A stretch of 64,000 nucleotides of DNA from a virus. The DNA lies in IMG/VR virus record IMGVR_UViG_3300012642_000011, positions 288,001-352,000 of that record, one strand, 5' to 3'. The notes beneath the pieces were generated by a model. It was not told the DNA's origin. It saw nothing but the letters and a program-made list of their open reading frames with translations, and searched no databases. Positions 32,188-49,888 of this stretch are shown in pieces (the stretch's first letter is position 1; each line of letters begins with the position of its first letter). The position numbers and the translations under genes are program-made.

Positions 32188-32293
32188 GATCTTCCTTTTC
32201 TGTGAAGGCGGTGTTTAACTCTTGCTCTCATCATAAGCACAGGGACGCTCCAATGTCAACCACGGATCATCACGTCTTCTCTGCTCCCTGTTG

Positions 32294-32605
32294 TCAACCA
32301 CGGATCACAGGTGCAGGCGGGTGACCACTACCGCCGCCCTTACAATAGGACTCATGCCAAATGGGCAATGAGCAGTCATCTGCATGCAATCCGAACGTCT
32401 CTCCCCATGGTCTCATTCTATACGAAATGCCGAAACACAGATGGCACTGTGAAAGATCCTCATTGGGGCCTTCTGGTCCACGGTGTAACCCACGGGGACA
32501 CGGAATCTCACCGCGCCTGATCTTTTCCTGCAACTCCTGATACTCCTGCAACGCTCCGTTAGCGATGCGCTCACGTGCTGCTTTCCTGAATGCATTCTCG
32601 CTCAT
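32294..32605 (-). CDS. hypothetical protein
   Basis: 103-aa ORF. Confidence 0.4.
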   Translation of the reverse strand: MSENAFRKAARERIANGALQEYQELQEKIRRGEIPCPRGLHRGPEGPNEDLSQCHLCFGISYRMRPWGETFGLHADDCSLPIWHESYCKGGGSGHPPAPVIRG

Positions 32606-32750
32606 GGCATTCTCCTTCGATAGTAGTGCTTTATTTTACCAAGATAGATGCTATGTTGACCATTTGTTACAGCAGGGGGCAAGGGGACACAGAGTGATCT
32701 ACTAAGGATAGGCGGTAACACCCAATGTGTTACCGCCTATCTGTTGTGTT

Positions 32751-33287
32751 TCAGAGGGAGTCGTCAGCCACAGCCGAGAGGACGTAATTCTTGGACTCGG
32801 GATCAAGAAGCGTGCTCATCACGCCGAGGGTCTTCTTGGTCTTCTCGTACACCTCGCCCACGGTCACGTTGGTGTCCAGACCATTCACGTCCACGGCCAC
32901 TGCGAACGGGTTATCACTGCGCCAAACCTCCTCTTCGGTCGTGTGGCGATACACCTCCATGCCGGACAGTTCGGACAGGACAGCAACAGCCTTCTAGCCA
33001 ATCTCATCCTTGACAGTGATCTGGTTCTCATCACCGTCAAGGATCTCGATGACAGCATCCTTCACGCCGTCTGTCTCCAGACGCTCCACGTGACCCCCGT
33101 AGTCGAGGCACTCAACCCAGATCAGGGTAACCGACACGGCTCCCTCGTACTCGGAGTGAGAGAGAGCCAACTGCATGGGCGAAGTGATCCCCTGAAGGAA
33201 GAAAATGGGGAGGTTGTTGTCCTGTGTGCTCATCCACTCGGGGAGTTCAAGCATCGGGGTGTTCAGATCAAACAGATTGGTCATCAT
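32751..33287 (-). pseudogene. single reading frame split by one in-frame TAG (ORFs 32994..33287 and 32751..32960)
   Basis: The minus-strand translation ...KDEIG-TAG-KAVAVLSELSGMEVYRHTTEEE... runs straight through the stop. There is no RBS before the downstream ATG. Confidence 0.4.
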
Positions 33288-33479
33288 GTCCTTCTTTCAA
33301 AGTAATCGGTCTTGCTCTGTCATGGATGAATCTACCACAGGGGACGCTCCATGCGCAACCTGATACTCACATTATTTTTTTGCAGATAGTTCTCAACAAG
33401 ACAGAGGGGACACAGATAACACTACGGGGTGAGCATGGCATCTACCCGAACACCATGCTCACCCCGTGAAATCAGCAGT

Positions 33480-33710
33480 TCACTTGGCAAAATCCTCTGT
33501 CGCGTCAAGCGAAATGTCATCCGTGACAGGAACCTCTCCATCGATCTCCTCCCACGGGCAAGGACGTGGACGACGCACGATCCGCCACGCGCCCTCACGT
33601 GCGCCATCCTCTTCGAACTCACGCATGATTGCACTGACGGCATTGAGACCCATTCCCTCATACAAAATCTCGCCCGTTCGCGTTCGCTTGATCGCGTACT
33701 CATACGACAT
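33480..33710 (-). CDS. hypothetical protein
   Basis: 76-aa ORF with RBS AAGGAGAA. Confidence 0.45.
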   Translation of the reverse strand: MSYEYAIKRTRTGEILYEGMGLNAVSAIMREFEEDGAREGAWRIVRRPRPCPWEEIDGEVPVTDDISLDATEDFAK

Positions 33711-33827
33711 GATGATTCTCCTTCAAACACTGATTTCATTGTCTCTTGTCAGGATACACAGAAGGACGCTCCATTGTCAAGAATACATCAGGTCACGTTT
33801 TCCAGACATGGGGACACAGTGTTGCCA

Positions 33828-34271
33828 TCAAGCACCCAAGCCTACACCTGATTCTTTGGACAACTGTGTGATGAACCTCGTGATCTTCTTTGTTTCCAAG
33901 ATAGCAAGGCTCTGATCATTCACCACACCAAAAGTCTCCCCCACATCGTTGTAGTCCATGCTGTGCCAGACGCCCAAGGGGACGCTCGAAGAAGCAAACT
34001 CCTTGCCGACAACAAGAGAACCATCTCTTTCTGAAACCTTGTAGAGACCAAAAGGAGCGTGCAAATGATCCTCAGGGGAATCGTAGAACTCGAAGACGAA
34101 CTTGCGTGGCTTGCGGGAGAGTTTATCCAGTTCAGCCATGATGGCCTCAGCAACGCTCAGCAAGGAAAGCGTCCTCTGTACTCGATTGTACGCGTTGATT
34201 ACATCTGCATGAGAATTCTGAATTCCTAAACGCAGTTTTCTCACACCTGATGCAGTCACTTTTGTCGCCAT
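33828..34271 (-). CDS. hypothetical protein
   Basis: 147-aa ORF. Confidence 0.45.
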   Translation of the reverse strand: MATKVTASGVRKLRLGIQNSHADVINAYNRVQRTLSLLSVAEAIMAELDKLSRKPRKFVFEFYDSPEDHLHAPFGLYKVSERDGSLVVGKEFASSSVPLGVWHSMDYNDVGETFGVVNDQSLAILETKKITRFITQLSKESGVGLGA

Positions 34272-34453
34272 GATCTCTCTTCTCTCAGTCAGCAGATTGC
34301 TATATTCATCTTTGCAGATTGTATCAAAACATCCCCACGTCTAAGATTTAAAGATCATAAGAGGACGCTCCATTATTGAAGGTGTTGCACTCTATGCAGG
34401 TTCATGATACTGTGGAAGCAAGTTGATAACTCACACACCACAAGGAGACCGTC

Positions 34454-34768
34454 ATGAAGAAGATGACCGCAGAGCAGATGCAGGACTACCGAGAGAACTT
34501 CGGTGATGTCCCCAATAGCAGAATGGCATACGCCAATGAGTACGAGCGAGGGAAGTTCCTCAAGAAGCATGGGTTCAACGCTGATGCCAACGACGACATC
34601 TTCTCTGATACCAAGTACGTGTACTGTGTCTCTCACATTCGTCCTCACACTGTGGGCTGGTGTACTGTAGGCGCAGCTAACCAGTACCCTCTTGTTGCAC
34701 AGGATGATGTGTCTGCGCTTCAGGAAACGCGCAATCTCAACTTCCCCATCATGGGCGATAAGGACTGA
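34454..34768 (+). CDS. hypothetical protein, first copy of a tandem paralog pair
   Basis: MKKMTAEQMQDYRENFG...TKYVYCVSHIRPHTVGWCTV is paralogous to the next gene. RBS AAGGAGA. Confidence 0.5.
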   Translation: MKKMTAEQMQDYRENFGDVPNSRMAYANEYERGKFLKKHGFNADANDDIFSDTKYVYCVSHIRPHTVGWCTVGAANQYPLVAQDDVSALQETRNLNFPIMGDKD

Positions 34769-34863
34769 GCACCCTTCACAGGACGCTCCATACTCTTGCA
34801 CGCTGAGCGCTCATGTGATAGGCTAGAAGCACCACTTGAGAAGTAAACCACAAGGAGACCATC

Positions 34864-35199
34864 ATGGATCAGATGACCGTAGAGCAGATGCAGGACTACC
34901 GAGATAACTTCGGTCCTGTCTCCCTCAGCAGCAACGAGGGTGAACACCATCGCTTTAAGTACTTCAAGTCGCGCGATATGGACGTGTCCGCACCTGATAC
35001 GATCTTCCCTGACACCAAGTACGTGTACTGTGTCTCTCACATGAATCCTCACACCGTGGGTTGGTGTACTGTGCGTGTTGCCAATAAGTACCCCCTGCTC
35101 TCCACTGATCGTGAGAAGGCTATCGAGGAATGCCGCGACCTTGACTTCCCGCTGTTCGAGGACGTGGAGAAGATGCGTCGTCTGGCCCAGAAGCCCTGA
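34864..35199 (+). CDS. hypothetical protein, second copy of a tandem paralog pair
   Basis: MDQMTVEQMQDYRDNFG...TKYVYCVSHMNPHTVGWCTV. It has its own promoter TTGCAC-17-TAGGCT and RBS. Confidence 0.5.
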   Translation: MDQMTVEQMQDYRDNFGPVSLSSNEGEHHRFKYFKSRDMDVSAPDTIFPDTKYVYCVSHMNPHTVGWCTVRVANKYPLLSTDREKAIEECRDLDFPLFEDVEKMRRLAQKP

Positions 35200-35354
35200 T
35201 AATCAAGCCTGTGATGGCTACACAGCAAGGTCATATCATCCACCGATTCGATGGATTTTAAAAACTGATCACAGTGAGAGTTGCAATGCTTGCAGATGTG
35301 TAGTACACTTTAAATCGTAAGCACGAACCACTCATTGAAATCAAGGAGAATGCC

Positions 35355-35657
35355 ATGAAGATGAACACGAACACCAAGACCGTCAAGCAGACCACGCTCA
35401 TTTTCGAGATTGAGAGCGAGGATGACGTTGCGACCTTCAACGATGAGATCGAGAAGGCGCTTGAGCAGGCGTGGGATGATGATGCAGAGCAGAGCATCTA
35501 TGATGACGAGGTTATTGCGCCTAAGATCGAGCTTAGCCCCAACTGGAACGGAAACGCCGTCATTGGCTACAAGGGGGGCGTTATCGCCACCTTCGATCAC
35601 CTTCCCGTGACCATCGAGGTTCCGGCTCACAACACGTCGGCAACCAACGTCATGTGA
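35355..35657 (+). CDS. hypothetical protein, first copy of a second tandem paralog pair
   Basis: ...HTTLIFEIESEDD...PVTIEVPAHNTSATNVM, followed by a terminator at about 35662-35705. Confidence 0.5.
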   Translation: MKMNTNTKTVKQTTLIFEIESEDDVATFNDEIEKALEQAWDDDAEQSIYDDEVIAPKIELSPNWNGNAVIGYKGGVIATFDHLPVTIEVPAHNTSATNVM

Positions 35658-35661
35658 CCTG

Positions 35662-35705
35662 AAGAAGAGCAGGGGAGAGACCACGAGGCATCATTCGTGG
35701 TCTCT
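35662..35705 (+). terminator. intrinsic terminator
   Basis: aggggagagaccacga...cgtggtctctcccct followed by ttttttg. A paralogous copy follows the next gene at about 36083-36122. Confidence 0.6.
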
Positions 35706-35757
35706 CCCCTTTTTTGCTATAATAATCGTAAATCACACGTACAAGAAGGGAGATAAA

Positions 35758-36069
35758 ATGGAGATCACAGCAAGCAATGAGAACGTCAAGCACACTACTC
35801 TCACCTTCGTCCTCAACAGCGAGGAAGAGGTTGTCGTCTTCAACGATGTCGTGGAAGAGCATTTGATCGAGGCATGGGAAAACGGAGCGTTCAAGAGCGA
35901 AAACGAGGACGAGAGGCACGTTCCTCAGATCGAGAAGGAAGAGACAGATGATCTCAATGAATACAGTCTCCTGTACCACATTGACGTGCTGGACACCTTC
36001 ACTGGCGAGGACTTCCCGGTGACCATTCAGATTCCGGCTCACAACACGTCAGCAGTCAGCATCCTGTGA
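35758..36069 (+). CDS. hypothetical protein, second copy of a second tandem paralog pair
   Basis: ...HTTLTFVLNSEEE...PVTIQIPAHNTSAVSIL, followed by a near-identical terminator at about 36083-36122. Confidence 0.5.
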   Translation: MEITASNENVKHTTLTFVLNSEEEVVVFNDVVEEHLIEAWENGAFKSENEDERHVPQIEKEETDDLNEYSLLYHIDVLDTFTGEDFPVTIQIPAHNTSAVSIL

Positions 36070-36236
36070 CTTGAACAAGAAAAGGGGAGACCACGAGGTT
36101 AGCGTGCGTGGTCCCCCTTTCTATTTGCCTAGATCACGCAGAAAACGCACGAATAAATGAGGGGACACAAATCTTGTATCCTTTACCTTTTGATAGAATT
36201 ACATTATAGACGTTCCACTTTCTCAAAGGAGTATTC

Positions 36237-37001
36237 ATGGCGACAAAGACTGTCACCCTCTCAAGCAACCCCCTCAGGCATCCAAAAATGCCCAGCATGA
36301 TCCTTGGACCTGTAGCCTCCCGAGGTGGTCAGGCATGCTACGCGCCTGTAGCGTTCCTGCTCAAAGATGGGACGCTCTACACGTCTCTCAAGACAGGTAA
36401 AATCGATGAATGGAGTGATACTGAATGCTCATCATTCCGCTTCCTCAAGTACACTTACACCGATGATTTCACCCGCGAGGGGGATCAGTGGTACATGAAC
36501 GGCGAGCCGCTCTACGACGAAGAGGAATACCCTGTCATCCCCCATAGGGAGGGGCAGACCATTGCAGAGGTCACAGCCTTCATAGACACGCCTCTGACGG
36601 CAGATGAGGACGCTCCTACCACCAGCGCTATTGAAGCCATCTCTACGCCTACAGGAAGCGACGAAGGAGAGCAAGAGGTTGCTCAAGCGTCTCTGGACAC
36701 TACCGATTCCATGAACACAGGAGAGCACTATTTCAAGAACCTTGTGCGTTTACCAGATGGGGCTTGGTTTGGACTGTCCGAAACGTCAGGACGCTTGATG
36801 TGGGTCAGTGATGAGCAGTTGAAATCATTCTCCATTAATAGGGCTGCTAACGATGTCGTCTCCTATGTTAAAGATGGCGGCAAGTGGATACAAAGAGGCA
36901 AAGGCCCCATTGGAAAGCCATTCCCATGGGTTACCGCGCTCATTGTCCTCATGGTGGTAGCAGCGGCAGCATTCGGTTATTGGTGGTTCGTCATGAAGTG
37001 A
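36237..37001 (+). CDS. C-terminally membrane-anchored hypothetical protein
   Basis: The C-terminal TM reads WVTALIVLMVVAAAAFGYWWFV. RBS AAAGGAG. Confidence 0.5.
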   Translation: MATKTVTLSSNPLRHPKMPSMILGPVASRGGQACYAPVAFLLKDGTLYTSLKTGKIDEWSDTECSSFRFLKYTYTDDFTREGDQWYMNGEPLYDEEEYPVIPHREGQTIAEVTAFIDTPLTADEDAPTTSAIEAISTPTGSDEGEQEVAQASLDTTDSMNTGEHYFKNLVRLPDGAWFGLSETSGRLMWVSDEQLKSFSINRAANDVVSYVKDGGKWIQRGKGPIGKPFPWVTALIVLMVVAAAAFGYWWFVMK

Positions 37002-37082
37002 TAGGGACGCTCCATATCTTAATACCATCATCATCTCATATGCAATTGTTAGAGAAAACAGCATCATAGCGAGGTGGTGCAA

Positions 37083-38276
37083 ATGGGAATAGTGATCACA
37101 AAGACGGCCTACGGGAAGTCAAAAACGGATGGCACATGGGAGAGATGCCGCGCAAAGCCTGAGAACAGGGGTAAGGGGCGATGTCCGCACGGAGAGCATC
37201 AAGACCTCACCAAAGACGAGGAGCAAATCATCCATGTGCTCAACGATGAGATACTCATCAAGAAGTACGGCAGTACAGCAAGGTTGTCCAAGAAGGGGGA
37301 CGCTCCTTCCTCAACAGGCAAGAGGACGCAGCAATCAGGGCAAGCATCGTCCAAGCCTAGAAGGAAGCGCAGAGGACAAGGCAGCAGGAGAAACAAGATC
37401 GCCAAGGTGGGAAATAACTCCTTTGCTACCCATGAAGGGGGACGCTCCCTTACAAGAAAAGAATTCGATACATCAAGCCAGAAGGTGGCAGAATCTTTCC
37501 CCCAAGAGGATTGGAAAGCCATCAATAGTTTTTATTCAAAGTTCTCTGAAGTATCTGAAAAGGATGAAGCGAAGAAGAACTTTGATTCTGCGGTGAAGTC
37601 CGTTAAGGAATACATGAAGAGTGATGACCCTGATGCTGTGAAGATGAGGGAATTCTTTGGTGATGATGTGAACGTGGATGACGTGGCAGAGATACTGGTC
37701 TACCAAGTCAACGCTATGCGTTCTCCTATCACGTGGGAAACCAAGAGGCCGGGCACTATCAAGCGTTCTATAGCCACCACGGTGAACAACGACATGAACA
37801 AGGAGAGATACGTTGCCAGCGTCATGTTCTTTGGTGGAAGGTGCTGCTACTGCAATCAGCCCATGTCCAAACGAGAAGGTGACTCCAAGGCTACAGGCGA
37901 GCACATTACACCCGTGAACCCTTCTGGTAACGGAGTGATGGGAGGGACACGCTATGGCAACATGGCTCTTGCTTGTTCAGGGTGCAACAACGAGAGAGGC
38001 AACAAGGAGTTGAATGAGTGGATCAGCGAGACCTCAAGGCTTTCAGAGGAGAATAAGAAGGCTTCTATGGATCGTATTGACCAGTTCAGGAAGTTTGCTC
38101 TCTACAAGGAGTACACGCCGGAGCAGTCGAATGCCATCAGGGCGGCTATCAAGGAGACAGAGAAGTTCATGTATGAGAGAAGGAATCCTAATGGTTCGTA
38201 TGTGGACAATGGGATCAAGGAGATCAGGGATCACTTGAAGATCACGATTCATGATCTGAATGAGATGCTGAGGTGA
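37083..38276 (+). CDS. HNH endonuclease with a long basic N-terminal region
   Basis: CCYCNQ...GEHITPVNP...NMALACSGCNNERGNK is an HNH or His-Me finger. The ATG at 37083 is preceded by GAGGTGG. Its TGA stop overlaps the last copy of motif A. Confidence 0.6.
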   Translation: MGIVITKTAYGKSKTDGTWERCRAKPENRGKGRCPHGEHQDLTKDEEQIIHVLNDEILIKKYGSTARLSKKGDAPSSTGKRTQQSGQASSKPRRKRRGQGSRRNKIAKVGNNSFATHEGGRSLTRKEFDTSSQKVAESFPQEDWKAINSFYSKFSEVSEKDEAKKNFDSAVKSVKEYMKSDDPDAVKMREFFGDDVNVDDVAEILVYQVNAMRSPITWETKRPGTIKRSIATTVNNDMNKERYVASVMFFGGRCCYCNQPMSKREGDSKATGEHITPVNPSGNGVMGGTRYGNMALACSGCNNERGNKELNEWISETSRLSEENKKASMDRIDQFRKFALYKEYTPEQSNAIRAAIKETEKFMYERRNPNGSYVDNGIKEIRDHLKITIHDLNEMLR

Positions 38277-38409
38277 GGGGACACAGTTCTTAGTCGCCTA
38301 GAAGCAAGAAACCCTGTAAGCATTGCTTACAGGGTTTCTGTATTGATTAACTCGTGGTGGTGCTCACAAGGCTTAAAGAGATGGATGCTGGCGAGGATTT
38401 AGCACCCAC

Positions 38410-38489
38410 GTACCCCTAACGGGATTCGAACCCGTATGCCGAAGCGAGAGATTTTAAGTCTCCTGTGTATACCAATTCCACCATAGGGG
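38410..38489 (-). tRNA. tRNA-Leu (anticodon UAA) with an unusually short variable arm
   Basis: Minus-strand reading GCCCCTA-TGGTGGAATTGGTATACAC-AGGAGACTTAAAATCTCT-CGCTTCGGCATA-CGGGTTCGAATCCCGT-TAGGGGT-A. The D-arm is Leu-like (GGAATTGGTA). The anticodon loop CUUAAAA gives UAA. No CCA is encoded. Confidence 0.55.
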
Positions 38490-38757
38490 CAAAAGTGGGA
38501 TGTTGATCCTGCCTTGTACTTCGGCAGAACCAACAGCCCTTGCGGGTTGAGGGTAATGACTCCCCGTACCGCGATGAGCAAGATGGCCCATCAGCAACCT
38601 CCCGACCTTTCTCGGTAGTCCGCACTGTACATTGCTTTGAAAGAGCATGCACGGTCAGTGCCAACCGCCTCCCTGACGTGTGAGGAAACGCCTGCAAGGT
38701 CATTACTCCTTACAGGACATTGGTGAATCGTCATTATCGATTCCAACCAATGCTTTG

Positions 38758-38830
38758 TACTCCCAACGGGATTCGAACCCGTGTCGTCGCCGTGAAAGGG
38801 CGATGTCCTAGGCCACTAGACGATGGGAGC
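38758..38830 (-). tRNA. tRNA-Glu (anticodon UUC)
   Basis: Minus-strand GCTCCCATCGTCTAGTGGCCTAGGACATCGCCCTTTCACGGCGACGACACGGGTTCGAATCCCGTTGGGAGTA closely resembles bacterial tRNA-Glu. Confidence 0.7.
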
Positions 38831-39056
38831 GTGGCCCCTGACTGCACTATGAACCCCATGTGTTCTCACGGAATCCACCATGCATTCAGGAATACTATCA
38901 GGCAAGTCCCTACCTACCACATCGTCCTGATGACCTTTTTCAAGTCATAGCGGACAGGGAACTCTTTACCAAGTTGATGTTCGGCCCAAAATTCTTTTCA
39001 TTATTCTGTTGTTCTGATTCTAGTGTATCACACTCGGATCAGTTATGCAAGTCCAT

Positions 39057-39112
39057 TATAGTGTTGGTTGCCAGACGGCGGAACCCTTTGCCATCTGGCA
39101 ACCAACACTATA
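39057..39112. repeat. perfect 19-bp inverted repeat (hairpin) with an 18-nt loop
   Basis: tatagtgttggttgccaga - cggcggaaccctttgcca - tctggcaaccaacactata. Confidence 0.6.
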
Positions 39113-39178
39113 CCAGAAGGTTTGACTACCAGAGGGCAGTGCTTTGCTCAAAGCCCGTCTGGTGTCCTACCCTCCCAA

Positions 39179-39231
39179 GGTTTGATTACCATGCTGTACC
39201 CTGAGAATAATACCGCATGGTAATCAAAACT
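39179..39231. repeat. perfect 15-bp inverted repeat (hairpin) with a 20-nt loop, preceded by a direct repeat aaggtttgaYtacc
   Basis: gtttgattaccatgc - tgtaccctgagaataatacc - gcatggtaatcaaac. A direct repeat lies at about 39116-39130 and 39176-39190. Confidence 0.55.
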
Positions 39232-39232
39232 C

Positions 39233-39305
39233 GCTCCCCCACCTGGATTCGAACCAGGAACCTACGCATTAACAGTGCGGCGCTCTGCCGTTGAGCTATA
39301 GGGGA
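39233..39305 (-). tRNA. tRNA-Asn (anticodon GUU)
   Basis: Minus-strand TCCCCTATAGCTCAACGGCAGAGCGCCGCACTGTTAATGCGTAGGTTCCTGGTTCGAATCCAGGTGGGGGAG. The anticodon loop CUGUUAA is as in bacterial tRNA-Asn. Confidence 0.7.
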
Positions 39306-39309
39306 ATGT

Positions 39310-39460
39310 CTGGCTTATACAGTCATTTAACTCACTTGCCCCCGAGTGAGCACCAGAAAATCTCTGTTCAGTTACCAATCTCCAACTTCTTATATGAACT
39401 ACGGCGATGCTAAAGACAACGCCGTTTCTGGCTTCACAGGAATATGCTTAATCAGACCTT
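39310..39460 (-). ncRNA. putative TnpB guide (omega or right-end RNA) region
   Basis: By analogy with characterised TnpB systems, the guide RNA is transcribed from the 3' end of tnpB into the right end. This region holds two hairpins. No direct sequence evidence of expression exists. Confidence 0.25.
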
Positions 39461-40753
39461 ATACAGATCATTCTTAAGTCTAACAATCCCTCCACCAGCA
39501 CAACCCTCCGTTCCAGAGGTGACCAAACTCAAGTACCTTTCACCAAGAATAACCATATTCCTCGCAGCATGAGAATCACGATCCTCACTAAAACCACAAG
39601 AAGAACACAAGAAAACACTCATATTAACATCATGCTTCGTCAAGACACCACAAGGAGAACACCACGCAGTAGTAGCCACCCACTTAGGCAGCATTACCGC
39701 ATTCTCATGATTTTTCAAGCGCGCTTTAACACGACCAAGCACACCATGATGGATCTTCTTAGAACCACGTGCTTTCGAATTCTTGTTCTTCCACGATACT
39801 AACATTTCATCTTGGAAGAACACTACACTATCCTTAGTTAACCTGCTTACTAATTGATTAGCAAACTCATTCTTCAAATGATCAGTATTCTGATACTCTC
39901 TCTTGATCTTAGCCAAAGTCTTGCGATAACTGTTGGAGTTCTTTACCTGACGAGACAGTTTTCTCTGCAATCTCGCCATCCTCTCCTGTTTGCCAGTAAT
40001 AATCGCGTTAACAACCTCACCATTATCAAGAGTTAAAGCATTCTTTACACCCATGTCCACACCGATTTTATTCGTAGGTGCAACCTTAACTGCTCGTGGC
40101 TGATAAGTGGTCACTACTAAATGATAACCATCAGCACGATACACTAATTTAGCATTCGCAAACTCAAGACTATCAGCACACAATTGCTCATAACCGCGAA
40201 CACGTAATCTGCCGGGAATGTTCTGAACACGGATTTTAGTCATCATCCCTTTTGAATTAGGAATCAGATCATAAGTCACGCCATATTGTTTGAGATTGAT
40301 AGAATCGACATTGCGAACAAACTTTAGTTTTCCAATCTTGCGACCATTCTTCTTCAATGCAGATAATGATTTGCGATCATTGCTCAATTGAGTTATCACG
40401 CTTTGCTGCATTTGGCTTCCAAGATGTTTGATTGCTCTTTTCTCAGTATCTCCGTTGGGGACTTTTACCTCAACTTCACCTTTGAGTTCTTTGATGTAGT
40501 CAAGATCAAAACGTTCTGCTGCAAGGGCAGCATTGCGAATCCATTTAGCCTCATGGAAAATACTTTTAATAGCCTCTTTTTGCTGTTTATTCATGGAAGA
40601 TTGTACGATTTTTAGGTCATACACTTTGACAATCATGGTTTTTCTGCGTTCACGAGTTGCTTTTCCTGCTTCTTTGATTCTCTTGTTTTTGGCAAGTCTG
40701 GCTTCTTCTGTGAGGGTTTTTGGTGCGCTTGTGCGTTGTGCCATGATTGTCAC
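39452..40753 (-). CDS. tnpB: TnpB (OrfB), RuvC-like RNA-guided endonuclease of the IS200/IS605 family
   Basis: A 433-aa protein. RuvC-I reads IGVDMGVKN. The C-terminal zinc finger is CSPCG...CSSCG, followed by an RuvC-III-like DRDSHAARNM. Confidence 0.8.
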   Translation of the reverse strand: MTIMAQRTSAPKTLTEEARLAKNKRIKEAGKATRERRKTMIVKVYDLKIVQSSMNKQQKEAIKSIFHEAKWIRNAALAAERFDLDYIKELKGEVEVKVPNGDTEKRAIKHLGSQMQQSVITQLSNDRKSLSALKKNGRKIGKLKFVRNVDSINLKQYGVTYDLIPNSKGMMTKIRVQNIPGRLRVRGYEQLCADSLEFANAKLVYRADGYHLVVTTYQPRAVKVAPTNKIGVDMGVKNALTLDNGEVVNAIITGKQERMARLQRKLSRQVKNSNSYRKTLAKIKREYQNTDHLKNEFANQLVSRLTKDSVVFFQDEMLVSWKNKNSKARGSKKIHHGVLGRVKARLKNHENAVMLPKWVATTAWCSPCGVLTKHDVNMSVFLCSSCGFSEDRDSHAARNMVILGERYLSLVTSGTEGCAGGGIVRLKNDLYKV

Positions 40754-40805
40754 CTCCTTGATATAATAGGCTATCTTATCTTATTATATCAAAAGGTTGG
40801 TTGTG

Positions 40806-41198
40806 ATGGGTGCTGTTCAGAATTTGCGTTATCATTTTGTTTTTGCTACGAAGTTTCGTAGGGGGTGTTTTAGTGGTATTGAGGGTGATGTGGTGAGGGC
40901 GATTGAGTATGCTGTGTCGAAGTCTTCATGCAAGTTAGAGCGTGTTGCTGTTGAAGATGGGGATCATGTTCATTTGGTAGTGAGGATGTCTGGGACTTAT
41001 TCTGTTTCTGGTTTAGTGAACCGTTTGAAGTCTTTGAGTTCTCATCATTTGTGGGAGATGCAGGGGGATCATTTGAGAAGATTTTATTGGGGTGGTCGTC
41101 ATTATTTGTGGAGTGGTGGTTATTATGCTGCTACTATTGGCGATGTGAGTGCTGATCATGTTGATAAGTACCTGAAAAAGCAAGGCCACTGGAAATAA
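40806..41198 (+). CDS. tnpA: TnpA, HuH Y1 transposase (IS200-like)
   Basis: LRYHFVFATKFRR (HuH and the YH..V motif) and GDHVHLVV (HxH) are present, with the C-terminal Y in GGYYAATIGDVS. It is divergent from tnpB. The track ORF starts at a TTG at 40797. Confidence 0.8.
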   Translation: MGAVQNLRYHFVFATKFRRGCFSGIEGDVVRAIEYAVSKSSCKLERVAVEDGDHVHLVVRMSGTYSVSGLVNRLKSLSSHHLWEMQGDHLRRFYWGGRHYLWSGGYYAATIGDVSADHVDKYLKKQGHWK

Positions 41199-41305
41199 TA
41201 CACTTGCGCTTACATCAGCGAGGCTGAAGACCTCGCCGCTTTACGCGCTTTCGTGTAACGGTATCAATGAAAACATCAAGCGTTTTTGGAATTAACGATC
41301 TCATA

Positions 41306-42085
41306 TTAAGAGATCTCTTCGAGATGGATCAATGGTCTTGAATATCCCTCTACCTTGTGATCCATATCAACACTGATAACCCTGAACTTTGTTCCTCTGG
41401 CAAGGGTAACCTCTTCCTCATAAGATCCATCCTCATTCCACTTCGCTGATTGAGTAGTATCAATCTTCATCAGAACACCAGAGATATAATCAGGAGCATT
41501 CATACCAGAGAACTCATGAGATATGTCTTCAGATGTAGAAGTAGACACGAACTCATTGAAGACAACCTCGTTACCAGCCTCCCCGATATGCTTCTTCACC
41601 CATTCTACAGGATTCATGTCAGTCTTGCGAGGAAGATCGGAATTTGCTGTCTTCACCCCACGAAAAAGAGTATGATTTGATTTTCTACGAGGGCACCTCG
41701 CCAACGCTTTATCCATGTTATCAATCACTTTTCTTTGATCATCAGATAAACTGCCCACATCATCACGTCTCAAAGCATCATTGATCTCACCATGCTCAAA
41801 GGAACCATACGATTCCCAAGCATCCCTCTCATCATCAGAAAGAGAATTTCTCCATGTTGATACAAGAGAAGAATGATTTGTAGAAGACAAGGACGACACA
41901 GAAGAGAATGATCTCTCCAAAACTTCCTCAGAAAAAGAATGTGCCTCCTTCATGTTCTCAAAATGCTGTACTGAACCCAAGGGGCATTCAATCTTATCTG
42001 CCCTGCATCTGTTCATCTCGCCAGTTTTGCTGCTCACGTGATACTTGACCATTATCCCTCCCCATGTTTTCAGATGAACACACAT
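41306..42085 (-). CDS. mono-ADP-ribosyltransferase of the R-S-E class (C3, Alt or Mod-like toxin fold)
   Basis: Arg motif HTLFRGV, STS motif VSTSTS and ExE motif EEEVTLARG appear in the canonical order and spacing. Confidence 0.55.
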   Translation of the reverse strand: MCVHLKTWGGIMVKYHVSSKTGEMNRCRADKIECPLGSVQHFENMKEAHSFSEEVLERSFSSVSSLSSTNHSSLVSTWRNSLSDDERDAWESYGSFEHGEINDALRRDDVGSLSDDQRKVIDNMDKALARCPRRKSNHTLFRGVKTANSDLPRKTDMNPVEWVKKHIGEAGNEVVFNEFVSTSTSEDISHEFSGMNAPDYISGVLMKIDTTQSAKWNEDGSYEEEVTLARGTKFRVISVDMDHKVEGYSRPLIHLEEIS

Positions 42086-42195
42086 GATGATTCTCTAATC
42101 TCACACACGATCTAAACTATTGATGCCAATCAACCCCGATCCAGCATGGACTAGGAAATCATTTCTGCAAAAGAAGCGAAGTTGTGTATACGCAA

Positions 42196-42232
42196 AAGAG
42201 GGTGAGAATTAGATTCTCACCCTCTTTCACCT
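42196..42232 (-). terminator. intrinsic terminator after nrdE
   Basis: aaagagggtgagaat-tag-attctcaccctcttt, with a T-tract on the minus strand. Confidence 0.5.
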
Positions 42233-42278
42233 TATTATTCAATTGTCATCAAGTTTACATCTATCTATTTAAAATAGA

Positions 42279-45200
42279 TCAGACCTGACATGACTCACAG
42301 TAAGAGTTTGCATCCTCAACCTCTGTTCCTGCAAGTGTGGAAGGACGTACACGGACGTAGTAAATCGTCTTGATACCCTTCCTCCATGCATAAATGTATG
42401 CCTTATTGAGATCTCTGGTTGTGGCCTCATCAGTCACAAAGAGAGTCAAAGAAGCACCCTGATCAATGTGAGGTGTAGCAGCAGCATACACATCAATGAT
42501 GGCTTCAGTTCCTACCTTGTATGCATCAGCGTAGTAAGGCAGAGTTTCCTCACTCAAGTATGGCTGTGGGTAGAAGACTCTACCAATCTTTCCTTCCTTC
42601 CTTGCCTCAATGTTCTGAGCAACAGGATGGATAGAAGAAGTAGAATAAGAAATGTAACTGATGCTTCCTGTTGGCGCAACAGCGATCAGGTACGCATTAT
42701 ATAGACCATCTCTCATCACATCTTCCTTCAACTGCTTCCAGTCTTCAGCAGTAGGCACATGCATACTTGTCTTCTTCAGAAGTTCTTTGACCTTCTCAGT
42801 CTTGACTTCTGAGTACTGACCGTTTGTGTACATGTCGAAGAACTCACCTGTAGCATACTTTGACTTCTCAAACTCGAAGAATGTCTTTCCCTTCTCCTTT
42901 GCCATCTTGTTGGATGCCTTCATAGCGTAGTAACGTACTGACATGAAGTACAAGTTGGTGAAGTCTACTGCTTCCTCAGATGCGTAATAGATGTGCTCAC
43001 GTGCAAAGAATCCGTGAAGGTTCATTGCACCCAGACCAATAGCATGACTCAACTGGTTTCCACGCTCAATGGATGGAGCAGATGAGATGTTGGACAGTTC
43101 TGACACTACTGTGAGCGCACGTACTGCTGTTTCCACTGACTGACCAAAATCAGGTGAATCAAACATGTTGGCAACATTGAGAGAGGCGAGGTTACAGGAG
43201 ATGTCTCTTCCAACGTGGTCATAGTTTCCATCTTCATTAAATGTTGACGGAGTTGAGACCTGAAGAATTTCAGAACAGTTTCCTGTGACAATGCCATTGA
43301 AGATAATGGAGTGACCATCTTCTACAGTGACATCATATACATCCTCTACACCGTCAGGAACAATGTCTCTGACAACAGCCTTGTAGCGGTGTGTGCTGTA
43401 TGGTGTTCTGTTCTTATCCCATACCAATGACTTTTCCTGCCATGCTTTCTGCTGCCTGTCTGTCCAGTTCAGAAGTTCATAGAGAGCAACGACTTCAGCC
43501 TGTGCAGATGCCTTCAGATTCCACACTTCTGCTACATCATACTCCTTCTCTCCGCCCTTGCTATCAGGAAGGGTATCCTTACCTGCCTTGCGGGAGAGGT
43601 ACAGCCTAGTGAACACGTTCATGTTCAATAGCATCCTCTGAACTTCAAGGAGAAGTTCCCTATTTGTGGAAGTCAGTTCAATGGTTGCAGACTTTGATGT
43701 TCCTGTAATGCAACCATCTGCCTGATAGAGACCCGAAAGGTAGCCAACCTGTGTTGACCTGTCTCCTCTGAGTACGAAGTCAGGGACAATCTCCTTATTA
43801 TCCTTAGTGAAATCATTGTTTTTAAGGATTTCCGCAAGGATTGTAGAAGAAAGCGTCCATTTATTGTACTTCTCGCTTTCAGTGAAAGTAGGAATACGTG
43901 TGGACTCATCAACGAGACCAATGGCATCATCACTGTAGAAGATGTTCTCCACGATCTTATTGATCTTGCTGATCTCTGACTTATTCTTTGGCTTGATTGT
44001 CAGTCTTGCAGATGGTGAGTACTTAGAGTCCTTGTCCTCTACAAGAGAACCCTCACCTGCAATGAATCCTGCAATGAATGCAAGATCAGGCTTGTGAACG
44101 TGTCCGTATGCACCCTCTGATGGTTGAATGAGAACTTTGTCACCTGGCTTGACCTCACCCAAGGGGATCTTCACAAGGATAGGATCATCATTCTCGTCCT
44201 TACGCTCCACGTAGATCTTATGGTACTCTGTTGCTCTTAACTCATACCCCTCAATAGTGGACATTTTGAACACAGGAGTATTCTCTGCTGTCTTGAACAT
44301 CTTGGTTGATGTAACACTGGCTACTCCGTCTGCATCAAGATCCATAGTACGTGCTCTCTCATCAACGATGACGTTGAAGGAATTTTGTGATTCAAAGAGG
44401 TCTCCTGCACGGACGTTTCCTGAATCTGTAAGCAACTGTGTCTCTGCTGTGACGCAGAGGTTGGAATGTGTAACCTTTCCATCCAACTGTGACTGCGCGT
44501 TTACGTTGTCCTCAAACATGAGGTAGGGGTATCCTGACTCAAACTGTAGCTCAGCAATGGTCTGGAAGAGTGAACGTGCTTTAATCTTTTGCTTACGGAT
44601 CTTGGGGTTATCTACCATATCGTAGTACTCTTCCGTGATATCGATGTCACTGAAAGGCTTACCGTAGAATTTCTCAACATCATAAGGTGAGAACAGATAC
44701 ATGTCATCATTGCGCTTAGCAAGTTCAAAAGTGATGTCAGGAATGACAATACCAATGGAAAGTGTCTTAATCCTGATCTTCTCATCTGCGTTCTCACGCT
44801 TAGTGTCAAGGAATCTCATGATGTCAGGGTGGTGTGCGTTCAAGTACACTGCACCTGCTCCCTGACGTGCTCCCAACTGGTTAGCATAGGAGAATGAATC
44901 CTCAAGAAGTTTCATGACAGGAATGATTCCAGAGGACTGTCCCTCAATGTTCTTAATAGGAGCACCCTGCTCACGAACGTTGGTGAGGTTCAAAGCAACA
45001 CCGCCACCACGCTTAGACAACTGCAAAGCGTTGGTAATGTTTCTTGCAATGGATTCAAGGTTGTCTTCTGTTCTCAAGAGGAAGCAGTTGTGAGCAATGT
45101 ACCCTCTTGCTACATAGGTATGATTGTTCTCTACTTCAAGATTGTAAACAGTAGTAGTTTTTTCTTCGAATGAAGATGCCTTTACTTTATACATTACGTA

Positions 45201-46859
45201 TCCATCAATGATCCTTGCAAATCTAAACTGATCAGAGGCAAGTACACCATCAAATCTATCTGCATTTTTATCAATGTATTTAATGAAGTCAACATTGTTT
45301 TCGCTGATAGCAGGAATCTTCAAGGTGGATGTAGGTGACCCTGAAGCACTGAAGAAGGTTCTCTCATACGGAAGAAGTCCAATCCTCAAAGCAGCAGTTC
45401 TTAATTGAGAAATAATCTCAGGGTTGGACAAAGAGACTTCTGCGCTTCTGTCAAGGACTGTTCCATCCCCTCTGAAGCATCCTACAAGCATACCTTTGAG
45501 GAATTCATCAGAAGCATCAAGTAGAAGAGTGTTCAACCTCTTCTTATTAAATCCAGTTCCGATAAGGGAAACAAAGAATTCTCCCATAATTTGAGACCAA
45601 GCAGCCACATTCGTTGAGCCATCTACGTTTTCTCTCACAGTAGGCGTAAAGCCGAAGATTCTTTCAATCAGATTGACGGTATCCTTGATAAAGATATCTT
45701 CTTTTGATCCGAAAGTGAATCGAATTCCCTTATTTACCCCATTCGTGTAATGAGCATATCCCTCAGAAATGTAGTATCCTACAAGTCGTCCGAAATCTTC
45801 GTTCACAGAGATGGTGTTTTTCAAAGAATATGAGTTCTTTAAAACATTAGACCCCTTCTTTTTATTGTTTTTCTTGTCGATTGATCCAATGTAAACAAGA
45901 TCGTTTTCTACATCAACATCAAGAGTCCTACCCCATGTAGATGGCGTTTTAACGTAATCTGAAATCTTCAGTTCTGAAACAGATTCGGAACTTCTTCTTG
46001 GAACAGACAGAGCAATGAAATCACCAGGAAGAACTTCTCCCGCTGCAATCCACTTTACATTCTCAGTACTTCCATCACCATCAATTAAGGTGTCTTGAGA
46101 TGAGTTTTTTCTGTAAACAAGGACAGGGTGCTCTTTAGTAGAAGAGAACTTTTCTTTTTGTCCAATAACAGTAAGAGAAACTATTCCGTCACTTTCCTCA
46201 CGAGACATAACTCCTGTTACCTTTTGCACGCTGCCATCGTGTGTGTAAACTGAATCCCCCTCAACAATGTTGGAGATTGTAATTTCACCATGGGGTGTAG
46301 AAATTGGTGTATCGCCTTCGAAACACGACACCATCTCACCACGCTGCTTCTTTCCTGCATTCAAGAAGGTTGGAGTGGCAGGCTGGAAACGTCCGCCCAT
46401 CATCTCATCAAGCAAGTGCTCTGCAGCATCCTCGTCACCATCAGCAAGGTAAAGAGCAACAACGACAACCCTATCCTCATAGCGTTCAAGATATCTCTTG
46501 CCGTCGAATGTCTTCAGAGTATAGGATGTGTAGTACTTGAATGCTCCCATGAAGGATGGGAAACGGAACTTGTAAGCGTATGCCTTCTTGTAAAGTGACT
46601 TCACGAAATCGAAGTCATACTTGTCGAAGAGTTCCTTCTCGTAGTAGTCATTCTTGAAGAGGTAATCCAGTTTCTCTTCAAGATCGTGGAAGAACACTGT
46701 GTTCTCATTGACATGGTGGAGGAAGAATGCTCTGGCTGCCTCTTTGTCCTTATGCAACTGAAGTTTTCCATCTTCACCCATCAGTTTCACCTGGGCGTTC
46801 AACTCATGGTAATCCACGTTCTCTTCTTTGTCGTGGGTTGTTCCATTGAATTCAGACAT
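42279..46859 (-). CDS. nrdE: class Ib ribonucleotide reductase large subunit NrdE, interrupted by two inteins (1526-aa precursor, about 720-aa extein)
   Basis: The extein carries RNR blocks (TPTFLNAG...RGEMVS|CFLL, ...HSNL|CSEILQV and a C-terminal YCESCQV). The N-terminus is NrdE-like, without an ATP cone. Confidence 0.85.
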   Translation of the reverse strand: MSEFNGTTHDKEENVDYHELNAQVKLMGEDGKLQLHKDKEAARAFFLHHVNENTVFFHDLEEKLDYLFKNDYYEKELFDKYDFDFVKSLYKKAYAYKFRFPSFMGAFKYYTSYTLKTFDGKRYLERYEDRVVVVALYLADGDEDAAEHLLDEMMGGRFQPATPTFLNAGKKQRGEMVSCFEGDTPISTPHGEITISNIVEGDSVYTHDGSVQKVTGVMSREESDGIVSLTVIGQKEKFSSTKEHPVLVYRKNSSQDTLIDGDGSTENVKWIAAGEVLPGDFIALSVPRRSSESVSELKISDYVKTPSTWGRTLDVDVENDLVYIGSIDKKNNKKKGSNVLKNSYSLKNTISVNEDFGRLVGYYISEGYAHYTNGVNKGIRFTFGSKEDIFIKDTVNLIERIFGFTPTVRENVDGSTNVAAWSQIMGEFFVSLIGTGFNKKRLNTLLLDASDEFLKGMLVGCFRGDGTVLDRSAEVSLSNPEIISQLRTAALRIGLLPYERTFFSASGSPTSTLKIPAISENNVDFIKYIDKNADRFDGVLASDQFRFARIIDGYVMYKVKASSFEEKTTTVYNLEVENNHTYVARGYIAHNCFLLRTEDNLESIARNITNALQLSKRGGGVALNLTNVREQGAPIKNIEGQSSGIIPVMKLLEDSFSYANQLGARQGAGAVYLNAHHPDIMRFLDTKRENADEKIRIKTLSIGIVIPDITFELAKRNDDMYLFSPYDVEKFYGKPFSDIDITEEYYDMVDNPKIRKQKIKARSLFQTIAELQFESGYPYLMFEDNVNAQSQLDGKVTHSNLCVTAETQLLTDSGNVRAGDLFESQNSFNVIVDERARTMDLDADGVASVTSTKMFKTAENTPVFKMSTIEGYELRATEYHKIYVERKDENDDPILVKIPLGEVKPGDKVLIQPSEGAYGHVHKPDLAFIAGFIAGEGSLVEDKDSKYSPSARLTIKPKNKSEISKINKIVENIFYSDDAIGLVDESTRIPTFTESEKYNKWTLSSTILAEILKNNDFTKDNKEIVPDFVLRGDRSTQVGYLSGLYQADGCITGTSKSATIELTSTNRELLLEVQRMLLNMNVFTRLYLSRKAGKDTLPDSKGGEKEYDVAEVWNLKASAQAEVVALYELLNWTDRQQKAWQEKSLVWDKNRTPYSTHRYKAVVRDIVPDGVEDVYDVTVEDGHSIIFNGIVTGNCSEILQVSTPSTFNEDGNYDHVGRDISCNLASLNVANMFDSPDFGQSVETAVRALTVVSELSNISSAPSIERGNQLSHAIGLGAMNLHGFFAREHIYYASEEAVDFTNLYFMSVRYYAMKASNKMAKEKGKTFFEFEKSKYATGEFFDMYTNGQYSEVKTEKVKELLKKTSMHVPTAEDWKQLKEDVMRDGLYNAYLIAVAPTGSISYISYSTSSIHPVAQNIEARKEGKIGRVFYPQPYLSEETLPYYADAYKVGTEAIIDVYAAATPHIDQGASLTLFVTDEATTRDLNKAYIYAWRKGIKTIYYVRVRPSTLAGTEVEDANSYCESCQV
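43278..44456 (-). mobile_element. intein 2 in NrdE (about 393 aa, LAGLIDADG type)
   Basis: Inserted between THSNL and CSEILQ. It starts CVTAETQLL and ends IVTGN, with the unusual penultimate Gly. The blocks are LAFIAGFIAGEGSL and VGYLSGLYQADGC. Confidence 0.55.
45087..46325 (-). mobile_element. intein 1 in NrdE (about 413 aa, LAGLIDADG homing-endonuclease type)
   Basis: Inserted between RGEMVS and CFLL. It starts CFEGDTPIS and ends YIAHN. The LAGLIDADG-like blocks are GRLVGYYISEGYA and LKGMLVGCFRGDG. Confidence 0.6.
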
Positions 46860-47169: not shown

Positions 47170-48903
47170 TCAGGGTCTGTCTTGATGAAAAGGAAACGTA
47201 AAACGTATCTTACCACAATCATAAACTCTCTGAATCCCATTGATATGAGCCAACTGTGATTCAGTTAAAGATTCATCATAAAAAAGCGAAGGATCATTCT
47301 TAAACCTCTTCTTCCTGAAACCGAACTTATGCTTCCTCTCATTCCTGAAGATGTAGTAATAATCAGGAGGCAATATCTTATCCTGAATCCATCCTGTTTT
47401 CTCATACAAACCACCATCAGAAAAAGATAAATCAGCAAACGTCGTTAGCATAGAATTCGGATGCTCTTTCATGAATGCTTTGACTATTTTAGAATGACCA
47501 CCAATGACATGTTCAGACGTAGAATACCTCTCCAATATGTAACCATTCTTTGCCTTCTTGAAGGATGCAATTGCTACAAGAACGCCTGATCCCTTGTCTT
47601 TCAGACCCCAATGTTCAGAAGCACTCACTGATCCTTGAATGTGATTACTCTCATGGAATGCTGATGCTTCCCACCTGTCCACTATGCTGACATTCGTATT
47701 CCTTGCATAAATTCTTCTCTGATTATTAATTCCCATCACATGCTGAACATGCTTCTTGACAATCTCTTTCTTATTATTCCAATCATCCTCCCACACAGTT
47801 AACAATCTGATCCCTTGATCATGGCATGCCCAATATTTTTCAGAGTGCTTTTTCTTCCCCGAGAATTTTTCCTGATGCCAATAAATACCATTAAATTCAA
47901 TGGCTACATTGATCTCTGGAAGATAGATGTCAAGTTCCTTTCCGTTGAGAACTTTCCTATCATTAGTGATGATTCTGCCATCATAGACATCCATAATGAA
48001 TTCAATGAATTCCTTCTCCCGCTTAGATGTCCCTGCTTCATCACATTTACGACACCCTTCCTTGCCAGCAAAGTGAGCATCAAAGGACTGATAGAATGTG
48101 CCATGATCATCTATTGTGCAGATGATAGGAGAAGATGTTTTAACATTGAAGGAACTCAAGTCAACCTTGGAGTAATCATACCTGCCAGATCCATGAGATT
48201 GTATCTTGTTGTCAAACTTGGCAGTATCATATGGGGCATATTTATTACATTTTCTACAGCCGTTGTTTCCTCTTAAGTGAGAGTTGGCTTCAATCCTATA
48301 GGATTCACGGTGCTCATTACAGATGACAGTGATTTTCTCATGAAGGTTCTTGAATTGCATCACTTTGGAGTAATCAAATCGATCTCCATGTTTCTCTTTT
48401 GCTCTTGTGACATATTCTTGTACAGAGATCACACTTTGCCCATTGCATTCAGAGCAACCGTTCATTCCTCGTAAATGATTTTGAGCATTCTGGGTGAACT
48501 CGCCATGTTCTCTGCAAAGAACAGTGATCTGGTCAGCCATTTTGGTAAATCTCGTCTGGGAGTAATCAAATTTATCCCCATGGATTTCTTTTGCCTTTTG
48601 AATATACTCTTCAGGAGACATTCTTCTTGTTGCCATAGCGCATTCTTTGCACCCTGTACCACCTTTGCTTCCCAAATGTGTGTTAGGGTAAGTAGAGAAT
48701 TCACCATGATCAGGACAGATGATGATCACTTTTTCTTTGAGTTTAGTGTACTGCGTTGGAGAGTAGTCAAACCTGTCCCCATGAATACTTTTTGCTCTTT
48801 GAATGAAGTCCTCTGTATTCCTGATTCTCATTCTATAATGTCTCCTTGAGCAAAAGTAAGATCCTGTGAACATGAGTTGACCATGTTCACAGGATCTTAC
48901 CAA
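47170..48903 (-). CDS. freestanding homing-endonuclease-like protein with N-terminal tandem zinc-ribbon repeats and a C-terminal Vsr or DUF559-like PD-(D/E)XK nuclease domain
   Basis: At least four repeats of about 60 aa have the form IHGDRFDYS...C.EHGEF...HL.G..GC..C. The C-terminus ELDIYLPEINVAIEFNGIYWH resembles Vsr or DUF559. The gene sits between nrdF and nrdE. Confidence 0.5.
   Translation of the reverse strand: MVRSCEHGQLMFTGSYFCSRRHYRMRIRNTEDFIQRAKSIHGDRFDYSPTQYTKLKEKVIIICPDHGEFSTYPNTHLGSKGGTGCKECAMATRRMSPEEYIQKAKEIHGDKFDYSQTRFTKMADQITVLCREHGEFTQNAQNHLRGMNGCSECNGQSVISVQEYVTRAKEKHGDRFDYSKVMQFKNLHEKITVICNEHRESYRIEANSHLRGNNGCRKCNKYAPYDTAKFDNKIQSHGSGRYDYSKVDLSSFNVKTSSPIICTIDDHGTFYQSFDAHFAGKEGCRKCDEAGTSKREKEFIEFIMDVYDGRIITNDRKVLNGKELDIYLPEINVAIEFNGIYWHQEKFSGKKKHSEKYWACHDQGIRLLTVWEDDWNNKKEIVKKHVQHVMGINNQRRIYARNTNVSIVDRWEASAFHESNHIQGSVSASEHWGLKDKGSGVLVAIASFKKAKNGYILERYSTSEHVIGGHSKIVKAFMKEHPNSMLTTFADLSFSDGGLYEKTGWIQDKILPPDYYYIFRNERKHKFGFRKKRFKNDPSLFYDESLTESQLAHINGIQRVYDCGKIRFTFPFHQDRP

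Positions 48904-48913: not shown

Positions 48914-49888
<975 letters not shown>

Follow-up and report, generated by a model that had tools for sequence, protein, structure and literature searches.

A complete IS200/IS605-family element on a huge phage, brought next to tRNA-Asn probably by a join within a 133-nt repeat and not by insertion

Introduction

The transposons IS605 and IS608 of Helicobacter pylori pair a Y1 HUH transposase, TnpA, with TnpB and possess subterminal hairpins but no inverted terminal repeats; in IS605 the two genes, tnpA and tnpB, are divergent. The target of IS608 is TTAC (PMC8612924), 3' of which it inserts without target duplication, and the H. pylori TnpB (HpyTnpB) was inactive in the assay of Meers et al. 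(PMC10055086). ISDra2 of Deinococcus radiodurans makes a right-end element RNA (reRNA) of ~150 nt that covers the tnpB 3' end together with the right end and whose last ~16 nt, the guide, derive from flanking DNA (PMC8612924), and palindrome-associated transposable elements (PATEs) with guide RNAs used in trans have been described in Geobacillus stearothermophilus (PMC10055086). TnpB is already known as frequent in phages (PMC12607003), and transposon "non-restorative homing" between co-infecting phages or plasmids is listed as a possibility in a review (PMC13565253). Here we describe an element of this family on a 64,000-nt stretch of viral DNA, IMG/VR record IMGVR_UViG_3300012642_000011, positions 288,001 to 352,000. 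This stretch is called the window below, and positions refer to it unless a contig is named. The original prediction placed an IS605-type element with an apparently intact TnpB directly 5' of a tRNA-Asn gene. Our reading, to which we give a probability of about 0.6, is that the element is a complete IS200/IS605 element and that its adjacency to the tRNA gene comes from a join in a repeat, not from insertion at that site.

The element resembles both H. pylori transposons in its Y1 HUH TnpA with TnpB and in its subterminal hairpins without inverted terminal repeats; it shares insertion 3' of TTAC without target duplication with IS608, and divergent tnpA and tnpB with IS605. Unlike IS608, it ends on the right with ...GTAGTTCAT, its host replicon is a huge phage, and the protein similarity is distant (TnpA E 1e-5 against 2a6m/2vhg). 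The RuvC D-E-D residues and zinc finger of its TnpB align with those of the ISDra2 TnpB-reRNA system, and its predicted RNA, known here from sequence, likewise spans the tnpB 3' end and the right end; the similarity is weak (E 8e-7), the transposon-adjacent motif (TAM) is TTAC here and TTGAT in ISDra2, the gene order is different, and tnpB here stops 58 nt before the right end. As with the ISGst elements and PATEs of G. stearothermophilus, a full element exists beside a protein-less mini element that has both ends and the RNA scaffold and would be served in trans, with the same donor-joint targeting logic. In contrast to those, the phage has only two copies, a tRNA array surrounds the co-oriented mini copy, and the window holds only the right end and flank of the mini copy. 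The likeness to non-restorative homing is a sequence signature only, namely a near-identical element at one site, flanks up to 2.75% diverged, and an empty allele.

The element and its ends

39394-41254, minus strand: complete IS200/IS605-family element of 1,861 bp, delimited by three independent comparisons
41255-41258, minus strand: TTAC, target and transposon-adjacent motif, in the flank and outside the element
41199-41254, minus strand: left end; an imperfect subterminal hairpin occupies 41216-41238 (CGGCGAGG TCTTCAG CCTCGCTG)
40806-41198, plus strand: tnpA, Y1 HUH transposase of 130 aa (Pfam Y1_Tnp, E 2.8e-26)
40758-40792: palindromic intergenic region in the gap between tnpA and tnpB (TTGATATAATA...TATTATATCAA)
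39452-40744, minus strand: tnpB, 430 aa (Pfam OrfB_IS605 and Cas12f1-like_TNB)

Read on the minus strand, the element consists of the left end, tnpA on the opposite strand, tnpB, and the right end. Its boundaries come from a comparison of the full copy with a mini copy found on other contigs, from the right terminus CGCCGTAGTTCAT, which is kept in relatives with TnpB 81, 64, and 60% identical and at which similarity ends, and from an empty site in contig L174. The window is 100% identical to contigs L001-L004 over 39394-46744. Below 39394 the sequences are completely different: those contigs enter an AAA-ATPase gene, and the window has 88 nt followed by tRNA-Asn. The left end is directly preceded by TTAC in the window copy, the mini copy, and the relative L022, similarity starting just after it. 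The empty site runs straight into the AAA gene (...GATGTTTTGTTAC/TTCTGTCTTTGATAAG..., the slash marking the insertion point) without any target duplication and retains the TTAC (GTTAC/TTCTGTC). Insertion 3' of a defined tetra- or pentanucleotide, here TTAC, without target-site duplication is characteristic of the family, as is the absence of terminal inverted repeats together with subterminal hairpins at both ends. The left-end hairpin (DNA fold z = -2.8, 0/200 shuffles as good) is kept with compensatory changes in L024 and L016, and the right-end hairpin at 39401-39425, for which relatives show compensatory changes as well, reaches z = -3.3 (0/200 shuffles as good). Within the window, neither the element nor its guide-RNA fold has a second copy.

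The original prediction of an IS605-type element with intact TnpA and TnpB is borne out by the domains and catalytic residues, its TTAC-like target motif is exactly TTAC, and the ends, which it proposed to define by alignment to other copies, come out at 39394 and 41254. Its right end at 39310 is 84 nt too far out by this mapping, and the element does not reach within ~5 nt of tRNA-Asn, since 88 nt of non-element DNA lie between. The expected subterminal hairpins are present at both ends; the one at 39331-39352, in contrast, lies outside the element in this 88-nt spacer, and its fold is not significant (z = -1.1).

TnpB starts at the ATG at 40744, behind AAGGAGGTG. Its RuvC residues are D230, E313, and D390, and its CxxC..CxxC zinc finger is formed by C362/C365/C380/C383. 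In an alignment of 18 relatives (44-81% identity) D230, Q311-D312, the four cysteines, and R389-D390 do not vary at all and E313 hardly does, and D230 and D390 fall on the RuvC Asp residues of solved TnpB-like chains of the 8exa/8h1j type (HMMER alignment, PDB). The claim that the RuvC-I Asp and the zinc finger are kept therefore holds, and a split RuvC (D, E, D) with a zinc finger is what is expected in the IS605 group. TnpA has fared equally well: aligned with solved Y1 transposases such as 2ec2 and 2fyx, H54-V-H56 falls on the HUH motif and Y122 (in "DKYLKKQ") on the "YIxxQ" Tyr, so that the HuH and the Tyr are kept and the protein is a Y1 HUH transposase with a single catalytic Tyr, as in IS200/IS605. 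The exact TnpA protein was found in 45 blocks of the contig collection and the exact TnpB protein on 17 metagenome contigs. A promoter scan located TTGATA-18-TATTAT on both strands of the intergenic palindrome (10/12 matches); going by this consensus match only, we infer that back-to-back sigma-70-like promoters serve tnpA and tnpB.

The nearest cellular relatives of TnpB are from Varibaculum, Pseudoclavibacter, and Actinomyces (42-45% identity), and large viral contigs hold dozens of relatives. Those in the viral and genome collections were found by alignment-based scans; single-protein scans of the same collections returned nothing. We also noticed a second TnpB, 64% identical and designated P0003, on phage-like contigs of up to 91 kb (L016-L021) from the same samples. 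It has no adjacent tnpA, and its copies have the same right terminus CGCCGTAGTTCAT and RNA fold, but the motif 5' of their left ends differs and is TTTATA-like. Several phage contigs carry two or more TnpB relatives (L120/L150, L132/L161, and L121/L159/L163).

The predicted guide RNA

39394-39541, minus strand: predicted omega-RNA (reRNA) scaffold, made up of the 3'-terminal 90 nt of tnpB plus the right end (58 nt)
39374-39393, minus strand: putative guide of 16-20 nt (ATAAGAAGTTGGAGATTGGT) in the window arrangement, positioned by analogy with ISDra2

According to our prediction, a right-end guide RNA is present and encoded by the element. The scaffold takes in the right-end hairpin, and the consensus fold derived from four relatives shows compensatory changes in 9/30 pairs. 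A covariance model built from these four matches the tnpB 3' end in 35 loci, in whose alignment the paired cells make up 92.3% (35-50% in slid controls) and 26/30 pairs of the scaffold show compensatory changes, both values being read with the caveat that the alignment was fitted to the model. The guide RNA foreseen in the original prediction is therefore retained as a predicted feature, with its region moved from 39310-39460 to a scaffold at 39394-39541 and a guide from 39393 to ~39374. In other assemblies the full copy is followed by TTCTGTGTTTGATAAG in the guide position, not ATAAGAAGTTGGAGATTGGT. Neither expected guide target is found next to a TTAC elsewhere in the window.

The tRNA locus and the mini element

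39233-39305, minus strand: tRNA-Asn(gtt), identified by ARAGORN and Rfam
39306-39393, minus strand: non-element spacer of 88 nt, also found directly after the mini element in L006-L011
39394-39526: 133-nt repeat, identical in the full and mini elements, inside which the two halves of the window are joined

In the window, tnpB and tRNA-Asn are co-oriented and 147 nt apart, with tRNA-Glu and tRNA-Leu(taa) to the left of tRNA-Asn, likewise on the minus strand; the Rfam search gave these three tRNAs only, everything else being sub-threshold chance matches. On the minus strand, the interval from tnpB to tRNA-Asn has neither a predicted sigma-70-like promoter nor a predicted terminator, and read-through from the element into the tRNA is therefore plausible in the window arrangement. 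To this extent the suggestion that tRNA-Asn is transcribed through the element survives.

The same tRNA locus looks different on other contigs. The protein encoded at 36237-37001 recurs on contigs of many samples, including one of 332,269 bp, and in nine other contigs read directly, and in the contigs grouped with them, it is a mini element of ~200 nt and not the full copy that precedes tRNA-Asn. In contig L006, where the locus has 19 tRNAs, 17 of them in one co-oriented run that holds tRNA-Asn, the mini element occupies 13158-13356 and is without tnpA and tnpB. It is composed of the TTAC, a 52-nt left end, a short inner right-end segment, and the 133 nt identical to the full copy, giving a right end of ~147 nt, and it keeps the whole conserved RNA fold (156.9 bits on L006 13158-13305). 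With both ends, no protein genes, and the same TTAC motif it is of PATE type, an assignment that concerns the tRNA-locus copy in L006-L011 and not the full copy of the window. Its inner segment has four variant bases of the full copies in L177/L178, and the mini copy is therefore taken as a deletion derivative of this element lineage. We considered whether the mini element of the tRNA site could descend from the window copy as its full-length ancestor; this was ruled out by the left-end flank of the window copy, which is that of the ADP-ribosyltransferase (ART)/ribonucleotide reductase (RNR) locus.

L006 and L001 are parts of a single contig, the one of 332,269 bp (MEGAHIT k141), on which the mini and full copies are inverted relative to each other and ~218 kb apart. 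In other assemblies the full copy stands between an ADP-ribosyltransferase-like gene and the AAA-ATPase gene, and every examined contig that reaches past the right end has the AAA-ATPase gene downstream. Insertion directly 5' of tRNA-Asn, as originally proposed, does not agree with a right end 88 nt away and with a mini element at this place elsewhere, the full copy being ~218 kb distant. Nor is the native promoter of tRNA-Asn displaced by the element, given that the mini element precedes the gene in other contigs. The 88-nt spacer and the TTAC target also speak against targeting of tRNA genes.

Enrichment of TnpB relatives beside tRNAs in viral contigs was not convincing: 3/60 related viral loci are inside tRNA arrays, and all three belong to one subfamily and are not independent. 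These are the IMG/VR contigs L120, L126, and L161 (192-248 kb), which have a solo TnpB subfamily ("MSEEKN...", ~41% identity) co-oriented in tRNA arrays. The TnpB gene starts 50-55 nt past a tRNA 3' end in L120 and L161, and that of L120 is split into two open reading frames (ORFs). Between tRNA-Glu and tRNA-Asn of the window (39057-39112) there is also a perfect 23-bp inverted repeat with a 10-nt loop (DNA fold -26 kcal/mol, z = -6.9), with weak chance matches to Rfam miRNA families.

The junction in the window

Compared with the tRNA-array contigs, the window is 100% identical over 38277-39526 (L006-L009, L011) and at least 99.99% identical across 26237-39526; past 39526 these contigs pass abruptly into a left-end copy that has diverged. 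The full-copy span of the window is 100% identical to L001-L004. The window is hence composed of the tRNA-side flank of the mini copy, the shared 133 nt, and the body and left flank of the full copy, and this combination of tRNA flank and tnpB body is on no contig on record. MEGAHIT contigs assembled with k = 141, which is longer than the repeat, give the other arrangement. In the Joint Genome Institute (JGI) assembly 3300012594, contig 100002 ends at window position 39526 and contig 100003 starts at 39400, with a 127-nt overlap, and joining the two inside the repeat recreates the window. The guanine-cytosine (GC) content steps from 0.51 to 0.41 at 39394, whereas it is continuous in other contigs (~0.50 on both sides of the mini copy, 0.42 and 0.40 beside the full copy), and the recurring motif GGGACGCTCCAT stops left of the junction. 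Because no contig has this arrangement, the k141 contigs show the other one, the JGI contigs overlap in the repeat, and GC and motif switch at the junction, we favor a mis-join: judged from these sequence comparisons, the junction probably arose in assembly or in contig overlapping within the 133-nt repeat.

Exact-pattern scans of the viral collection and the JGI metagenome collection left the right end and the tRNA-side flank unmatched, these collections evidently being without this phage. Several other contigs break at the divergence point of occupied and empty alleles (overlapping by 55 nt) or where the 133-nt repeat begins or ends, namely the end of L175 and the start of L004 (sample ERZ1030804), the ends of L168 and L010, and the start of L182. 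Such breaks fit branching of the assembly graph and possibly reflect mixed occupied and empty populations in one sample.

Element activity and population pattern

The empty allele (L174 1008-1040) and the occupied allele (window 41255-41270, L001 7352-7360) show two differences in 1,387 nt. Immediately 5' of TTAC there is a 10-nt indel (CATTGATACC), and at position 7 of the presumptive target the empty allele has C in place of G. Both are at most 15 nt from the insertion point, for which chance gives ~5e-4, and the remaining ~1.37 kb is identical. Shifted boundaries were considered as an explanation of the 10-nt difference; they need more changes and contradict the full/mini and relative comparisons. 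As a speculation, TnpB might spare the empty allele because of the mismatch close to the TAM, and the L174 allele could be an escape allele or could hold co-converted flanking markers.

Contig L184 differs from the window by 2.75% in the flanks (104/3,781) and by only 0.2% in the element (3/1,367; Fisher p = 5e-11). The contrast is weaker in L177-L179, with 0.1-0.3% in the element and 0.3-0.8% in the flanks. Homing to one and the same site in co-infecting relatives would be expected to give this divergence pattern, but ordinary recombination could also give it.

Alternative explanations

Several observations weigh against the reading of a complete element with an artificial tRNA adjacency. The full copy has been seen at one locus only, which bears on current transposition versus retention or homing. 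TnpB is without the ~20-aa C-terminal tail of most relatives, owing to an earlier TGA stop; the ORFs of most relatives reach a TAG inside the terminal GTAGTTCAT, and the early stop is common to this TnpB and P0002 (81% identity). The nucleotides past the stop are still conserved, which argues for constraint at the DNA or RNA level and not for coding. The perfect identity of the 133 nt versus 2/52 differences in the left ends could reflect recurrent recombination or gene conversion, which would speak for a real isomer, although the contrast is not significant (Fisher p = 0.08). Lastly, the junction may be a real inversion in the source population of the window, which, judged from contigs, we hold to be possible but rather unlikely.

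Under such an inversion, recombination between the inverted 133-nt copies would have turned around ~218 kb. The geometry fits exactly, as the 332-kb contig has the copies in opposite orientation and an inversion between them would create two junctions, one of which matches the window. Pairing the wrong edges of an assembly graph would give the same product. The perfect repeat beside differing left ends is compatible with ongoing exchange. It is also of note that a co-oriented tRNA lies 200-330 nt downstream of the tnpB protein match in the large phage contigs L126 and L120; in L161 the co-oriented tRNAs are upstream of tnpB. Against the inversion stand its absence from all examined contigs of many samples, the k = 141 assemblies that span the repeat and show the other arrangement, the contigs of the k = 127 assembly that break exactly in the repeat and recreate the window when naively joined, and the abrupt switch of GC and motif at the junction. 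Only if it were real, a tentative proposition, would tnpB be 147 nt upstream of tRNA-Asn in the phage and the guide RNA of the full element gain the mini flank as its guide. A junction that is neither a mis-join nor a real inversion seems very improbable.

The view of an inactive relic that is fixed at one locus and whose conservation reflects recent common ancestry of the sampled phages could draw on the single locus of the full copy and on the missing TnpB tail. It is highly improbable in the light of the intact catalytic residues, hairpins, TTAC, and RNA fold, the empty allele co-existing in a sister sample, the second, derived copy at another TTAC site, and the contrast between flanks and element in L184, which points to recent horizontal spread into the same site. 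The original prediction had named a single copy, degenerate ends, and no right-end RNA as the marks of a relic; none of these is seen here, and by its sequence the element appears unlike one. Transposition of the full element to a site immediately 5' of tRNA-Asn, with displaced promoter and a right end at ~39310, could appeal to the co-oriented genes 147 nt apart with no promoter- or terminator-like site predicted between them, but can practically be dismissed: the right end maps to 39394, the left-end flank is the ART/RNR locus, which transposition would not carry, and the tRNA is internal to a long array with the same 88-nt spacer in other contigs.

Genomic surroundings

42279-46859: RNR large-subunit gene, 1,526 aa, with intein and LAGLIDADG domains
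47170-48903: HNH/DUF723 homing-endonuclease-like gene, 577 aa, between the RNR large- and small-subunit genes
48914-49888: RNR small-subunit gene

The source genome of the window is phage-like and roughly 332 kb long. Megablast of 38300-42300 against GenBank phages gave tRNA matches only (86-88% identity) and no annotated relative. The right half of the window codes for the RNR large subunit with two inteins, the homing endonuclease, and the RNR small subunit, and also for a RecG-like helicase, a ClpB-like ATPase, and a clamp-like protein, whereas Lsr2-like genes are in the left half, as read in matching contigs. The surroundings of the element are dense in selfish elements (the RNR inteins and the HNH/DUF723 gene). 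Two GC regimes, ~0.50-0.52 (1-39394 in the window) and ~0.40-0.42 (39394-64000), are both present on the 332,269-bp contig and could be due to a mosaic origin or to distinct gene modules.

The 12-mer GGGACGCTCCAT occurs in 27 copies (0.3 expected, one mismatch allowed) at 5320-37450, all on the plus strand; the copies are confined to the GC-rich left half, all left of 37450, and are often intergenic and within longer repeat families (D1, D2, D10, D12, D14, D15). A role as a promoter or regulatory motif specific to the phage is possible. Another recurring motif, (A/G)GGGGACACAG(A/G)AT, is found in the GC-rich half at 967, 3297, 10710, 28173, and 33398 and also upstream of the mini element in the tRNA-array gap (L006 ~13600). 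Two pairs of tandem duplicates, consisting of short genes and intergenic regions in units of ~404-412 nt that are 79-86% identical, lie at 34437-36090 (repeat families D4, D6, D7).

Proposed mechanism and significance

A mechanism can be proposed from ISDra2 and IS608 (PMC8612924) and from the G. stearothermophilus elements and PATEs (PMC10055086). TnpA would excise and insert the top (minus) strand 3' of TTAC by means of the two subterminal hairpins, and an RNA of ~150 nt from the tnpB 3' end and the right end would carry 16-20 nt of flank as its guide. With this guide, TnpB would cut empty sites flanked by TTAC, so that the element would be copied back or into a co-infecting relative. The native genome would have the full copy between the ADP-ribosyltransferase-like and AAA-ATPase genes and the PATE-like mini copy 88 nt upstream of tRNA-Asn.

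It is conceivable, though doubtful, that the mini element is a working part of the tRNA operon, in which the omega-RNA would be made by read-through of the array, its 3' side being generated by an RNase P cut at tRNA-Asn and trimming, TnpB would act in trans, the element would home between strains, and the empty allele would escape by the mismatch at position 7. If this were true, the 3' side of the guide RNA would be set 88 nt downstream at tRNA-Asn, and its TnpB would be encoded 218 kb away; if the window arrangement were real as well, the guide RNA of the full element would likewise be fused to the tRNA-Asn precursor.

The element itself is ordinary: IS200/IS605 elements with TnpB are very common, and this one is a well-preserved additional member of the family on a huge phage. 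Its adjacency to tRNA-Asn in the window should not be taken at face value, as the 133-nt repeat explains it, which is a warning for users of this contig. The full copy, the guide-RNA-only copy, the empty allele, and the diverged strains make the system unusually well delimited and a tidy natural case for studying possible TnpB-driven homing among co-infecting huge phages, and the presence of a guide-RNA-only copy within a tRNA array suggests a link between tRNA processing and guide-RNA maturation.

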